NCBI GenBank assembly: GCA_964196225.1
Contig: CAXMSP010000016.1
Span: forward strand, 15,036-79,035
DNA length: 64,000 nt
Source of the DNA: an uncultured Gammaproteobacteria bacterium
Lineage (GTDB): Bacteria; Pseudomonadota; Gammaproteobacteria; GCA-001735895
Direction: 5' to 3'
Positions 32,041 through 36,010 of this stretch are shown here, one piece after another; positions within the stretch are counted from its first letter, which is position 1; the number at the start of each line of letters is the position of its first letter. Made by a program: the position numbers and the translations under genes. Under the pieces are notes generated by a model. It was given only the letters and a program-made list of their open reading frames with translations, did not search any database and was not told where the DNA came from.

Positions 32041-32355
32041 TCTTGAGTAACCCAGCGTTTAATCAATCAAGTATAGTGTCTAAATTTCAACAACTCAAAT
32101 AATACTTTAAAATTGATTTAAAAGTATTTGAAATATATAAGGAAACTTATCTGAAGCTTCGAATCAAACCCGAGTTTATCGACAATAATTGTGCATCGCT
32201 GTTAACTGCTTCAAAGTTTGGGCATCAGGCCTGGTTGACGGGCAACCACGCCTAGGGCGGATCTTGTGAAACCGTCGCCTGGATACGACGTTGGACGTAA
32301 TCGAGCGAACCATAAGAACCAGTGCTCGCAATCGCGGTTAGCTGGAAGGTATCGA

Positions 32356-32454
32356 TCAGCGTGATGCCTTCGATATGAGTTGTCTGGCCACATTCGGGGT
32401 GAATTGGCTTTCCCTGCTTTCGAGATCCTTGAGAACGTTATTAATAACACTCAT
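32356..32454 (-). pseudogene. Truncated mshN-like gene (32-codon stub)
   Basis: MSVINNVLKDLESRESQFTP.. is a typical MshN N-terminus, and its ATG overlaps the mshM-like stop (ATGA). The frame terminates after 32 codons. No TM or TPR follows in any frame that I could recognise. Confidence 0.5.
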
Positions 32455-33254
32455 TGCATCTGGCTGTCGGCAGCGGCGGCCTCGATGTGTTTGCCCTTGA
32501 CATAGAATTCGCCGCTGGCGTAGGAAAGCATCAGTGCCTTGTTGCATAGAACGTTGATAATCCTGGGTATACCCTGGCTGAGTTTATAGAGCCGGCGTAG
32601 TGCGCCGTCATCGAATAACTCGGGCCCTCGATAGCCTGCTGAACTGACACGGTGCTGCAGATACGATCGAATTGAGACCTGGTTTAACGGCTTCAACTGA
32701 TAGGCATGTCCGATTCTTTGCTTTAGCTGCCTCGCGTTACTTTTTGCCAGCATGGCATCGAGTTCGGGCTGCCCAAACAGGACGATCTGTACCAATTTTC
32801 GCTTGCCGGTTTCCAGGTTACTGATTAATCGGATCGCTTCGAGGCTCTCCTGTGGTATTGATTGCGCCTCGTCGAGAATGATGACCATGCCGCAGTTTCG
32901 ACGCGCGTTTTCGATTAAATACTCGTTTATACAGGTGAGATAATTTGCCTTGTTCAGCCTGTCCGCTATGCCCATTTCGACTAAAATTGCATGGAACAGG
33001 GCGTTGCAACCCATGTATGGATTAGGGATGTATACCGTATCAAAGTTCAACTCCAGTGCCTGAAGCAGTTTTCGACACAGCAAGGTCTTGCCTGTGCCCA
33101 CCTCACCGGTTACCTTGATGAAACCTTCACCTGAGGCAATGGCCACCCGTAATACGTTGAGTGCTTCCTTATGAGTAAAAGACTGGTAAAAAAACCCGGT
33201 ATCCGGGGTCAGACTGAACGGTTTTTCCGAAAGTCCATAGTATTGTTCGTACAT
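32451..33254 (-). CDS. mshM: MshM/ExeA-like AAA+ ATPase (short form)
   Basis: It starts MYEQYYGLSEKPFSLTPD and has Walker A GEVGTGKT and Walker B VIILDEAQ. At 267 aa it is MshM-sized, with no TM or periplasmic part. Confidence 0.85.
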   Translation of the reverse strand: MYEQYYGLSEKPFSLTPDTGFFYQSFTHKEALNVLRVAIASGEGFIKVTGEVGTGKTLLCRKLLQALELNFDTVYIPNPYMGCNALFHAILVEMGIADRLNKANYLTCINEYLIENARRNCGMVIILDEAQSIPQESLEAIRLISNLETGKRKLVQIVLFGQPELDAMLAKSNARQLKQRIGHAYQLKPLNQVSIRSYLQHRVSSAGYRGPELFDDGALRRLYKLSQGIPRIINVLCNKALMLSYASGEFYVKGKHIEAAAADSQMQ

Positions 33255-33862
33255 TATTCACCCTCCACAGGAGAAGCGTTCAACTGTTTGACGCGGTCGG
33301 CACTCTTCTGAATATAGTTGGACCAGACACGGTTGTTATCGACGACGATGGGCCGCAACAGGATAACCAGTTCGCTGCGCCGGTTAGTTTTCCTTTTCTG
33401 CTTGAAGGCTTCGCCAACAAATGGAACATCGCTAATGCCTGGCACACCACCAACTTCATCGCTGCTGATATTTTTCATCAATCCGCCAATCACAATGACC
33501 TGACCGTTTTGGGCTCTTACAACCGAGTCGGACTCTCGTACCGTACTAAGCGCCAGCGGTAATTCGAAGGTTTCGCCACCAAGGGTTATCACCTTCAATT
33601 GATCATCGATGATCGCGACTTTACGATCCCTTGCATAAAGGATTGATGTGAGTTGCAACGATTTCTGTTGCGGCTTTACCGCCTTTGTTGATGTCGTTGC
33701 GGGTTTACCAGCCCATTTGGCCTGGCGAAATTTCTGCAATGCATACGGAGGAGGTTGCATCGGGTCGCGCAGTTCCGCTGCTTTCGCCATCGTACCAACG
33801 CCAAAGAATCCCAGTGATAGCAGGACTACCACTACGATGTAAGTTGTAATGATGCGCTGCAT
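33254..33862 (-). CDS. Chimeric ORF: MshK-like N-terminus fused in frame to the last ~95 aa of a secretin
   Basis: Residues 1 to about 90 form a signal/anchor followed by LRDPMQPPP...LQLTSILYARDRKVAIIDDQ, which is MshK-like. The remainder, RESDSVVRAQNGQVIVIGGLMKNISSDEVGGVPGISDVPFVGEAF...SELVILLRPIVV, aligns with the C-terminus of the full secretin at 27210-28772. Confidence 0.6.
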   Translation of the reverse strand: MQRIITTYIVVVVLLSLGFFGVGTMAKAAELRDPMQPPPYALQKFRQAKWAGKPATTSTKAVKPQQKSLQLTSILYARDRKVAIIDDQLKVITLGGETFELPLALSTVRESDSVVRAQNGQVIVIGGLMKNISSDEVGGVPGISDVPFVGEAFKQKRKTNRRSELVILLRPIVVDNNRVWSNYIQKSADRVKQLNASPVEGE

Positions 33863-34519
33863 TTATATCCCAACCCATTCCTTGCGTGTCGACAAGGTCG
33901 AAATCACTACCTTGACGGTGACATTTGGATATTCGTCGCTCGCAATTTCAATCTCGTCCCAGAGCAATTTCCAGTCAAGCGCTTCTAACGTCTGCATATA
34001 CTTGAGAATATCGAGGTAACTACCGGCAAACTCGATTTCAAGCACGTGCCGATAGATGCCGGATTCGTCGGGTTGCTCTTCGTCATCCGAGGGGATGGCG
34101 GGTTTTACTTCACGACGTTTGAGGCTTAGCAACTTCAGGCGCGAATCCTTATAAATCAGCTGATTCATTAACTGAAACATCTTTTCCGGATCAATCAACT
34201 CGATCGTGGTTGCCCGGAGCCGGTCCTCCAGTGCGGCCAAATCCCTGGCAAGCTTAACCAGCTGAACTTCTTTTTCCTGCTGTACACCAGTTGCTATGCT
34301 CTGCTGTATATCGCGGATAATGGCACGTGAATTTTCAACATCACGGGCAATACGCTGATTTTCTGTTTGCAAAGCCTCGATTTTCGTCATCCTTGGTGTC
34401 GCGTAATTACTCCACCACACGAAGCTGATTACGACGATCAACGAAATAGCGATCAATCCACGTTCACGCAGCGACTGAGCGTCAAACCGCTGCCCATATT
34501 GTTTCAGCTTGCTATTCAT
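33863..34519 (-). CDS. MshJ/PilO-like bitopic protein
   Basis: It starts MNSKLKQYGQRFDAQSLRERG, followed by a TM (LIAISLIVVISFVWW), a coiled coil and a C-terminal domain. I chose the ATG at 34519, which gives an 8-nt overlap with the upstream gene. Confidence 0.6.
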   Translation of the reverse strand: MNSKLKQYGQRFDAQSLRERGLIAISLIVVISFVWWSNYATPRMTKIEALQTENQRIARDVENSRAIIRDIQQSIATGVQQEKEVQLVKLARDLAALEDRLRATTIELIDPEKMFQLMNQLIYKDSRLKLLSLKRREVKPAIPSDDEEQPDESGIYRHVLEIEFAGSYLDILKYMQTLEALDWKLLWDEIEIASDEYPNVTVKVVISTLSTRKEWVGI

Positions 34520-35114
34520 CGAAATCACCACTGGTAGCAATTTCAAAATCTACTTTCCAGTCGCTGTCCTTGTCCCTGCTCAGCCGGAATAAATCGAATC
34601 GGTTACCCTTAAATATCGGTTCGGCGCTAAAACGGTCGAAGTAGCCAGGAACCTCCGTGGCGTTGAGTGCGCTACCCCTGATCTGGACAAAGTTTTCGGC
34701 GAAACGAATCCGGTTAAGCCAGATATCATTGACATGCAGGTTCGACAAAGCGACCAGGAAGTCGGAAAAACCCTGCCCCGATCCAAACCGGTTGGCATCG
34801 ACAAAATTTAACACCCTCTTGCGCGCAGAAATCTGGCGCGCCGTGTTTTCAATCTTAAGGTCGAGTCGGTTATCTTCAAGCAGCTTGGCCAGCTCGGCAT
34901 TGGCAGTTGCCAGTTCAGCCGTTACCTGGTCCCGTTCCGCCTTGACTACCCGGTTACGTTGCTCGACCTGTTCGAACTCGTGGTGCAACAGGAAGCTCCA
35001 TATTGCTGCCGCGGCGATCACGAGCAACAATGTCACAGCAACCTGAATCGCGGAAACCCAGAGTTTTTTCTCCTTGAATCGTTCCTGGTAAAGGTTGATT
35101 TGCTGAACGATCAC
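34512..35114 (-). CDS. PilN-like protein (second half of MshI)
   Basis: It starts (GTG) IVQQINLYQERF, has a TM (AIQVAVTLLLVIAAAAIWSF) and a coiled coil, which together are PilN hallmarks. Confidence 0.65.
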   Translation of the reverse strand: MIVQQINLYQERFKEKKLWVSAIQVAVTLLLVIAAAAIWSFLLHHEFEQVEQRNRVVKAERDQVTAELATANAELAKLLEDNRLDLKIENTARQISARKRVLNFVDANRFGSGQGFSDFLVALSNLHVNDIWLNRIRFAENFVQIRGSALNATEVPGYFDRFSAEPIFKGNRFDLFRLSRDKDSDWKVDFEIATSGDFDE

Positions 35115-36010
35115 GTGGTCAGACCCCGCAACGCAGCACAGTATGCATGGAAGCAGTGAGGTTCGAGCCCAGGACTGCCGAAGGTGATGAAATCGATATC
35201 GAAATTGGAAAAATTCTGCAGGTACATCGCCATCTTTTCGGTCGCATTAAGCTGTGGAAATACGCGTAAACTGGTAACCGCACCGATACCGTAAAAACTC
35301 TCGAAATAATCCACTGAACGCTGTATCTCGAGCAGCAATGCATTGAAGGTGCTTTCATCTTCACTGGAAGCCAGCTCAAGCTGATCAATACCGATCGGGA
35401 ATTCGCGCGATACGTAGAGATCAGTGTTGTGATAGACGCTCAGCAAGCCATTGCCGGCGGTCAGTGTCAGCAGCGCCAGGCTTTGCTCCGCACTATGTTG
35501 CACGACCTCGAGGTTAGAACGGACCAGTTCGTGAACATCGAGTGTATTCAGCTCCAGGGCCGTAGCCTTGATACTCTCAACGTAGCTGCTTATGACGGCT
35601 TCACGGGCTGCGACCACTCCCACCTGTTGCTTTTTGTGCTTGTTTGAAACCGGCATCGGATAACTATCGACCACCGCATTGGTAACGTCATAGTTGATCA
35701 TGTCCTTTATTTTCCAGGTCACCGCCTGAATCATCTCGGAATCTTCGACTTCGGGCCTCTCGACCTGATAAATATCACAGTCGTCGTTTGCAACCAGGCA
35801 ATTACAGGGGGTCCTCTGCAGGTTATTTTCGCGCACCCAGTCCTTCAAAGCCTCGACCTGGGCCTCCTGCCCGGCAGCTGCGACGAATTCGCTGCGAATA
35901 ATGTCACCCGGACTATTCTGTCCGGTCCGCACCTGCGCTACGGCGACTCCATCGTGCTGAAATTCGACTCCGATCTGAGACTCTTTTTTCGATCTGGAAA
36001 ACAGACCCAC
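35111..36010 (-). CDS. PilM-like cytoplasmic actin-fold protein (first half of MshI)
   Basis: 299 aa with a GTG start preceded by GGAG at 6 nt. It has no TM and is the first gene of the I-J-K order. The assignment rests on position and on general PilM-like features (GVEFQHDGVAVAQV). Confidence 0.6.
   Translation of the reverse strand: MGLFSRSKKESQIGVEFQHDGVAVAQVRTGQNSPGDIIRSEFVAAAGQEAQVEALKDWVRENNLQRTPCNCLVANDDCDIYQVERPEVEDSEMIQAVTWKIKDMINYDVTNAVVDSYPMPVSNKHKKQQVGVVAAREAVISSYVESIKATALELNTLDVHELVRSNLEVVQHSAEQSLALLTLTAGNGLLSVYHNTDLYVSREFPIGIDQLELASSEDESTFNALLLEIQRSVDYFESFYGIGAVTSLRVFPQLNATEKMAMYLQNFSNFDIDFITFGSPGLEPHCFHAYCAALRGLTT

Follow-up and report, generated by a model that had tools for sequence, protein, structure and literature searches.

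The window analyzed here is a 64-kb stretch of contig CAXMSP010000016.1 from an uncultured Gammaproteobacteria bacterium, and the subject of this work is a group of genes at 32252–36010 (coordinates refer to the whole window) that resembles part of the operon for a mannose-sensitive hemagglutinin (MSHA)-type type IVa pilus. Reading downstream, this group, hereafter module A, consists of a pilM-like gene, a pilN-like gene, an mshJ-like gene, a chimera of mshK and mshL, mshM, a stub of mshN, and the 3′ scrap of a pilin-like gene, all on the minus strand. Module A is divergent from trmL (36206–36703, plus strand) at one end and borders a second MSHA-like gene set, module B, at the other (Table 1). 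All open reading frames (ORFs) of module A listed in the original prediction, which was made from the sequence alone, were found on the minus strand.

Family searches bear out the earlier gene labels, with weak matches for the alignment proteins and a clear assignment of MshM to the ExeA-type ATPases (AAA_22). The PilM-like protein stays below the cutoffs of PF11104 (18.3 bits; Pfam cutoff 27) and TIGR01175 (27 bits; NCBIfam cutoff 133) and weakly matches PilM in PDB entry 3jc8 (E = 2.8e-4); its orthologues in L001–L025 are 56–90% identical (L-numbers denote loci or contigs of relatives retrieved in the scans described below). The PilN-like protein exceeds the Pfam cutoff for PF05137 (23.9 bits against 22.8), and the sole family match of MshJ is T2SSM, at 18 bits and below cutoff. 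The likely true start of mshJ is the ATG at 34519, which gives 218 amino acids (aa), as called in an independent assembly. In the chimera, only residues 107–175 match the Secretin profile, at its final 69 positions; against the MshL-type secretin model TIGR02519, it reaches 76.4 bits, short of the cutoff of 250.2, and covers profile positions 207–290 only. MshM scores 231 bits with TIGR03015, below the cutoff of 324.5, and is 96–97% identical to its orthologues in L002, L021, and L028. The mshN stub begins MSVINNVLKDLE / MSVINNVLKDLESRESQFTP, and its start overlaps the mshM stop as ATGA. The pilin-like scrap ends in LTAIASTGSYGSLDYVQRRIQATVSQDPP followed by the stop, has no start codon, and lies in a different frame from the mshN stub. 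A 79-aa ORF at 32211–32450 was rejected as a gene, being a spurious alternative frame of the pilin remnant that is also present in intact L029.

Several parts expected of a pilus machine are missing. An MshE-type ATPase belonging to module A was not found in the window, where the sole match is the ATPase of module B (38% identity); similarly, no platform protein (GspF/PilC family) or pilin of module A was found in the window, bar 47 C-terminal pilin-like codons. The earlier claim that module A has no ATPase, platform, or pilins of its own thus holds, except that this 47-codon scrap had been overlooked. No second copy of the lost genes exists anywhere in the 64-kb window. A promoter and terminator scan performed no better than on shuffled sequence, and no Rfam family was found in the region. 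Distant from both modules, 5200–5310 on the plus strand weakly resembles the N-terminal segment of a prepilin.

To what system these genes once belonged can be read from relatives. When one genome per species was scanned with the PilM-like protein, 26 loci were retrieved, in uncultured Gammaproteobacteria and in the Olavius algarvensis Gamma 3 symbiont; a metagenome scan with the sigma-54 regulator added 16 further loci. Complete orthologous operons occupy the same secB-gpsA-trmL position in ~20 related genomes (including loci in L001–L025), which bears out the earlier description of module A as a decayed MSHA-type module. Where a locus reaches far enough downstream, the order is secB-gpsA-trmL, pilM, pilN, mshJ, mshK, full-length mshL, mshM, mshN, mshE, and mshG, and in L029, L030, L031, L035, L036/L037, L039, and L045, the complete operon leads directly into the regulator and module B. 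This ancestral state occurs in more than 10 related lineages. Our reference, REF, merges L021 and L029, which lie on the same 76,379-bp contig. It encodes PilM (299 aa), PilN (200 aa), MshJ (227 aa), MshK (138 aa), MshL (566 aa), MshM (267 aa), MshN (459 aa), MshE (579 aa), MshG (407 aa), and an MshF-like protein (166 aa), followed by pilin-like proteins of 140 (opposite strand), 158, 150, 288, and 133 aa, and a spacer of ~210 bp separates the last pilin-like gene from the regulator. The ancestral operon thus comprises 15 genes, including five pilin-like ones.

This ancestral module is a genuine MSHA-type operon because the full-length MshL of L021 passes the TIGR02519 equivalog (276.3 bits against 250.2; NCBIfam), and MshE of intact relatives carries an MshEN domain (PF05157, 56.9 bits; NF053729, 72 bits) with the cyclic di-GMP (c-di-GMP) motif. 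A platform protein and prepilin-type pilins are present in intact relatives, and the MSHA gene order mshI(pilM/pilN)-J-K-L-M-N-E-G-F plus pilins is found in REF, L045, and L054. The intact relatives share with the mshI-J-K-L-M-N-E-G-F-pilin operon of Vibrio cholerae and Shewanella the gene order, an MshL-type secretin, MshE with MshEN, an ExeA-like MshM, a tetratricopeptide repeat (TPR) MshN, a GspF-like MshG, and prepilins. They differ in that MshI is split into PilM-like and PilN-like genes and in having just five pilin-like genes, one of which is on the opposite strand. In intact lineages, operon A is under purifying selection (omega 0.05–0.14) and is, therefore, a working system when complete. 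The opposite-strand gene of the intact relatives (L029 7005–7427, minus strand) encodes a 140-aa prepilin-type candidate major pilin, and by tblastn, it often appears in two pieces or copies.

Table 1. Features of module A, its two deletion junctions, and its downstream flank in the window.
Feature	Position	Strand	Description
pilM-like, MshI N-terminal-type	35111–36010	−	299 aa, ORF intact; opening gene of the former operon
pilN-like	34512–35114	−	200 aa, ORF intact; 4-nt overlap with pilM
mshJ/PilO-like	33863–34546	−	Intact; longest ORF 227 aa from TTG 34546
mshK::mshL chimera	33254–33862	−	202 aa, in frame; mshK codons 1–84 + mshL codons 449–566
Deletion 1 junction	33600–33609	−	1,505 bp absent relative to L054 and REF
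mshM, ExeA-like AAA ATPase	32451–33254	−	267 aa, intact; AAA_22 87.7 bits
mshN stub	32356–32454	−	32 codons: 20 genuine mshN + 12 out-of-frame, then stop
Deletion 2 junction	32394	−	7,478 bp absent relative to REF; 1-bp overlap
Last pilin-like gene, 3′ remnant	32252–32394	−	Codons 87–133 + stop of a 133-aa gene
Intergenic region, conserved	32041–32251	−	Separates the former operon from the sigma-54 response regulator
Sigma-54-dependent response regulator	30646–32040	−	464 aa; opening gene of intact module B, context only

Aligned to REF by blastn, the window falls into three collinear blocks: 38200–33600, corresponding to REF 7809–12411; 33609–32394, corresponding to REF 13907–15122; and 32394–28000, corresponding to REF 22600–26915 (89.5% identity from REF 22600 onward). 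The gaps between them define two deletions. (i) Deletion 1 has a 10-bp microhomology at its junction, (T)CGATGATCA, found in both mshK and mshL. Since the two genes lie in different frames, the outcome is an in-frame fusion of MshK 1–84 to MshL 449–566. (ii) Deletion 2 removed mshN codons 21–459, mshE, mshG, the mshF-like gene, four whole pilin-like genes, and codons 1–86 of the fifth and last. The outcome is an out-of-frame junction between mshN codon 20 and codon 87 of that last pilin-like gene. From the pilM start to the regulator start, REF spans 12,953 bp and the window 3,970 bp, and the two deletions together (1,505 + 7,478) make up the whole shortfall of 8,983 bp, so nothing else has changed in length. 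No insertion sequence (IS) element, long repeat, or Rfam family was found at the junctions, and repeats in the region are trivial. Both events were shown to be illegitimate recombination, microhomology-mediated for deletion 1 and essentially non-homologous for deletion 2. Relative to the V. cholerae and Shewanella operons, the window copy is a remnant in which the mshL body and everything from mshN codon 21 to pilin codon 86 are gone, and the exact breakpoints confirm the earlier observation that the secretin and mshN are gutted while I, J, and M look intact. We also considered a bias of the deletions toward keeping frame and discarded it, as the three in-frame cases among five across the window and L028 are not significant.

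Deletions of this kind in uncultured-organism data could be assembly or binning artefacts of the source, and dubious frameshifts do occur in some related metagenome-assembled genomes (L017, L022, L024). We regard the chance of this as negligible: L043, a separate single-run assembly (ERR13301390, Logan), contains the two junctions and matches the window at 99.99% identity over 8,475 bp, and the first junction also occurs in L044 (ERR13301387, Logan assembly), which is 100% identical across it. The junctions are clean, and overlaps of 10 bp and 1 bp are too short to collapse an assembly graph. The exact PilM-like protein of the window also recurs on L043.

The undeleted allele exists in almost the same sequence background. 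Exact-protein look-ups for MshM and MshJ located ten contigs carrying it. Four of them, L054–L057 (JGI 3300059814-16 and -25), are 99.4–99.5% identical to the window over 6,920 + 1,216 bp, without gaps, and encode MshK of 138 aa, MshL of 566 aa, MshM, MshN of 459 aa, and MshE. Another four, L058–L061 (SRR21610155-58), carry the exact 218-aa MshJ of the window and continue via mshK beyond the first breakpoint; the two that were aligned, L058 and L060, are 99.5% identical to the window. That same MshJ is found on eight intact-operon contigs in all. The remaining two, L052 and L053, match the window at 99.6% identity over ~1.2 kb and are intact from junction 1 into mshL, with the exact window MshM adjoining intact mshL and mshN; L052 crosses the second junction into intact mshN, and L053 stops at mshN codon 15, before that junction. 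All ten contigs are intact across whichever breakpoint or breakpoints each of them reaches. When changes were polarized with five outgroups, just one non-synonymous (PilM D223N) and one synonymous substitution over the 993 codons of the four surviving genes proved specific to the window. With intact alleles at ~99.5% identity and only two window-specific substitutions, the deletions must be very young, and they are shown to be real, polymorphic inside one species-level population, and extremely young. Thus, the intact ancestor that the original prediction had proposed to look for among related genomes was found, down to ten near-identical contigs. Of the four closest intact contigs, three (L054, L056, and L057) have TAG in place of CAG at mshM codon 265, giving a protein of 264 aa, three codons shorter, which looks like a harmless polymorphism.

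The original prediction had also named an outcome that would speak against decay, namely, the same short genes conserved as a standard architecture in many genomes, in which case they would form a bona fide minimal system. Tidy-looking ORFs are all that speaks for such a system. A search of 5.8 billion proteins returned 434 homologues of the chimera, none of which covers more than 69% of it, and the MshK homologues in the same search are uniformly 136–138 aa long. Every other lineage has a separate 136–138-aa MshK and a ~566-aa MshL, and the exact chimeric protein is encoded on just two other contigs, L043 and L044, both at least 99.99% identical to the window. We, therefore, give a minimal architecture almost no credence.

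Operon A has been broken repeatedly in other lineages. L028, ~93–94% identical to the window, carries three deletions (L028 2324–5698): one from REF 10464 to 11465 fuses PilM 1–157 in frame to MshJ (380 aa) and removes pilN and the 3′ half of pilM; one from REF 12446 to 13481 creates an in-frame mshK::mshL fusion of 354 aa; and a third spans REF 15166 to 22475. L007 has a single deletion of ~9.1 kb (REF 12893 to 22037) that extends from mshL to the minor pilins and includes mshM. An end-stage allele is found in L034 (2500–3226), and apparently L038, where ~500 bp of pilM and mshK scraps lie between trmL and the regulator and mshK in L034 has a premature stop at codon 79. At the other extreme, in L045–L050 (12 contigs from several ERR10174xxx runs), the operon is otherwise complete, and a 4-bp deletion frameshifts mshL (L045 8649–10345) into pieces of 451 and 114 aa, apparently the same decay caught early.

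The second and third L028 deletions (REF 12446 to 13481 and 15166 to 22475) are nested within those of the window (REF 12411 to 13907 and 15122 to 22600), with ends 35–426 bp apart, and the window deletions might be extensions of older ones shared with L028. This is very improbable, since L052 and L054–L057, which match the window at 99.4–99.6% identity, carry undeleted sequence at the two junctions, whereas L028 is just ~93–94% identical. The window deletions, therefore, postdate the split from L028 by a long time, and a shared origin would require recombination to have brought intact genes back into the L054 lineage. Intact relatives at 99.5% identity show that the deletions of the window and of L028 are independent. 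There are, then, at least five independent lesion alleles on operon A, with the neighboring paralogous system kept. The mshL gene is affected in every well-supported one (window, L028, L007, L034, and L045–L050), no gene is spared in all decayed lineages, and the regulator and the start of module B are intact wherever they are visible. Different genes survive in each lineage, a pattern that speaks for survivors on their way out and against recruitment. Selective retention of mshK, whose 5′ part is present in all four deleted lineages, was considered and rejected, given the premature stop in L034 and the truncated copy in the window.

The neighbor is complete. Module B encodes a 614-aa ExeA-like protein, an MshL-type secretin, a 701-aa TPR protein, an MshE-type ATPase, a GspF-type platform protein, three unannotated proteins, and pilins, all full length relative to their orthologues. 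Counterparts in A and B are 22–44% identical, in line with the earlier view of two paralogous systems as opposed to a recent tandem duplication, and sequence comparison indicates that the two modules are old paralogues whose tandem arrangement is ancestral and conserved. What does not stand is the suggestion that the modules were brought together: the order A–regulator–B is ancestral, and the window merely shrank by 8,983 bp.

Taken with the other lineages, the window region is very probably a non-functional remnant, produced by two deletions, of a 15-gene operon that was once complete and encoded an MSHA-type type IVa pilus, and its surviving genes are, in this reading, relics and not recruits. 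Module A cannot function as a pilus machine because the secretin body, ATPase, platform, and pilins are absent; by inference from gene content, assembly of a surface pilus would be impossible for module A of the window alone. The two deletions stripped away the body of the secretin, the TPR protein, assembly ATPase, platform, and all pilins, leaving the pilM, pilN, mshJ, and mshM ORFs and the chimera as presumed relics that have had too little time to collect lesions. These relics are predicted to be still transcribed, probably from the promoter region ahead of pilM, which is untouched. The loss may have been tolerated because the adjacent paralogous module B is intact.

Several observations weigh against this interpretation. 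No stop or frameshift interrupts the 993 codons of the four surviving ORFs, the gene overlaps are kept, and deletion 1 is in frame; genes still in use would be expected to look the same. The non-synonymous and synonymous counts of the window, pairwise and private, are not above those of intact lineages: by the Nei–Gojobori method (NG86), pairwise omega for the surviving genes is 0.04–0.15, the same as between intact lineages, and private non-synonymous/synonymous counts are 15/21 in the window and 6/9, 17/33, 7/8, 49/72, and 58/85 in intact lineages. L007 independently retains pilM-pilN-mshJ-mshK, with a terminal-branch omega of ~0.12. Module B, in turn, might lack alignment proteins of its own. 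Its 532-, 198-, and 156-aa proteins (window 19525–22173) belong to no Pfam or NCBIfam family, and hhalign against the module A alignments gave probabilities below 3%, with no PilM/N/O likeness. For the 532-aa protein, a PDB profile search returned no match, and an AlphaFold2 model from a 23-sequence alignment had a predicted local distance difference test (pLDDT) score of 44.6, too poor for a fold search; its more than 400 homologues are all named ‘hypothetical’. Its predicted secondary structure (an N-terminal alpha/beta part, a long helix, and a C-terminal alpha-beta-beta-alpha-beta-beta part) hints at a resemblance to a PilM/PilN-like fusion.

These points bear on whether pilM, pilN, mshJ, and mshM have been kept through recruitment by module B, which would make the remnant a functional accessory module. 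Such a role would suit the intact ORFs and overlaps, the lack of excess non-synonymous change, the intact pilM-pilN-mshJ-mshK set of L007, and the lack of any PilM/N/O/P-like identification among the three unannotated proteins of module B. We, nevertheless, hold recruitment to be improbable. The deletions are younger than the ~0.5% nucleotide split from the intact alleles and are accompanied by two window-specific substitutions, so that intactness is expected even under neutrality: a neutral divergence of ~0.007–0.024 is estimated before a disabling mutation becomes likely, values that also set the upper bound on neutral d, whereas post-deletion divergence is of the order of 0.001. For this reason, intact ORFs, kept overlaps, and good ribosome-binding sites are uninformative, and dN/dS, which the original prediction had put forward as a check, has no power here; it was run as pairwise NG86, triplet terminal branches, and private counts, and none showed the elevation expected of relaxed selection, a null result that two window-specific substitutions leave without power. 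Other lineages have discarded the supposed recruits, with L028 missing the pilM 3′ half and pilN, L034/L038 missing pilM, pilN, and mshJ, and L007 missing mshM, while the regulator and the start of module B are kept. Moreover, paralogues in A and B are just 22–44% identical, and a complete A beside a complete B is the norm. On the choice between recruitment and loss, which had been left open at the outset, the evidence leans strongly to loss, with a small probability of cross-use remaining. The survivors do recall the PilMNOP alignment subcomplex in that PilM-, PilN-, and PilO-like (MshJ) proteins are encoded in the same order with a small MshK at the position of PilP; the differences are that the similarity is weak and that the secretin, platform, and ATPase partners are gone from module A of the window.

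If the region is the remnant of a dismantled operon, a separate question is what drove the loss. Loss of pilus A may even have been favored, by letting cells evade a pilus-specific phage or adhere less, which would explain the repeated breakage. The proposal that the loss was selection-driven and not neutral, with one of two tandem MSHA-type pili repeatedly knocked out and the secretin always included, is an unlikely one in our estimate, though it merits some weight. Secretin mutants of other type IV pili have been reported to suffer toxicity from fibers that cannot exit. Under selection, deletion of the motor and pilin genes after loss of the secretin may be compensatory, avoiding fibers unable to leave the cell, and PilM/N/J may persist in some lineages through cross-talk with module B.

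Parallel msh lesions are known from cultured bacteria. Shewanella oneidensis adapting to zebrafish acquired parallel mutations in mshL, mshG, and mshE (PMC7439477, PMC7909257), and MSHA-operon mutations in mshL, mshE, and mshG confer resistance to filamentous phage in Vibrio alginolyticus (bioRxiv 10.1101/2021.03.26.437141). The lesions described here are likewise parallel and independent, and all the well-supported ones include mshL. They differ in kind: those of S. oneidensis and V. alginolyticus are point mutations and small indels that arose in the laboratory and whose fitness effects were measured, whereas these are natural kilobase deletions in uncultured sediment Gammaproteobacteria, in which a second MSHA-like system adjoins the broken one. 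Recurrent lesions in operon A with its neighbor kept point to redundancy or to environmental selection against pilus A.

The process itself is well known, and the window is a fresh example of deletional operon decay and not a new kind of system. The locus should be annotated as a set of pseudogenes or an operon remnant and does not merit the label of a minimal pilus system. Its value lies in being a clean natural snapshot, with both alleles at ~99.5% identity, exact breakpoints, and an eroded series in other lineages, and it shows how a 13-kb operon for a machine is dismantled through a few microhomology or non-homologous deletions.

Additional features were noted in and around the two modules. 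Mosaic similarity between window 32394–36300 and L001/L002/L045/L028 suggests homologous recombination between lineages within the operon. For instance, L002 is 86.7% identical to the window to the left of junction 1 and 92.5% to the right, L045 is 89.4% and 87.0% identical, respectively, and L028 is 94.4% identical in the flank, 84.6% in mshJ-mshK, and 93% in mshL′-mshM; similarly, dS between the window and L028 is 0.80 for mshJ against 0.09–0.22 for the flanking secB, gpsA, and trmL. The regulator of module B and a multi-transmembrane histidine kinase at 14999–16606 have PEP-CTERM PrsR/PrsK as their best NCBIfam models, below cutoffs, and the best NCBIfam match of both ExeA-like ATPases is the XrtA/PEP-CTERM-associated ATPase model, again below cutoff. 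The gene for the 614-aa ExeA-like protein, the most length-variable module B protein among relatives, contains coding tandem repeats at 29165–29253 (27 nt × 3.3) and 29370–29510 (24 nt × 5.9), which encode DQAASTDAL and ELEAxAEQ, and the L043 contig ends in the second array.

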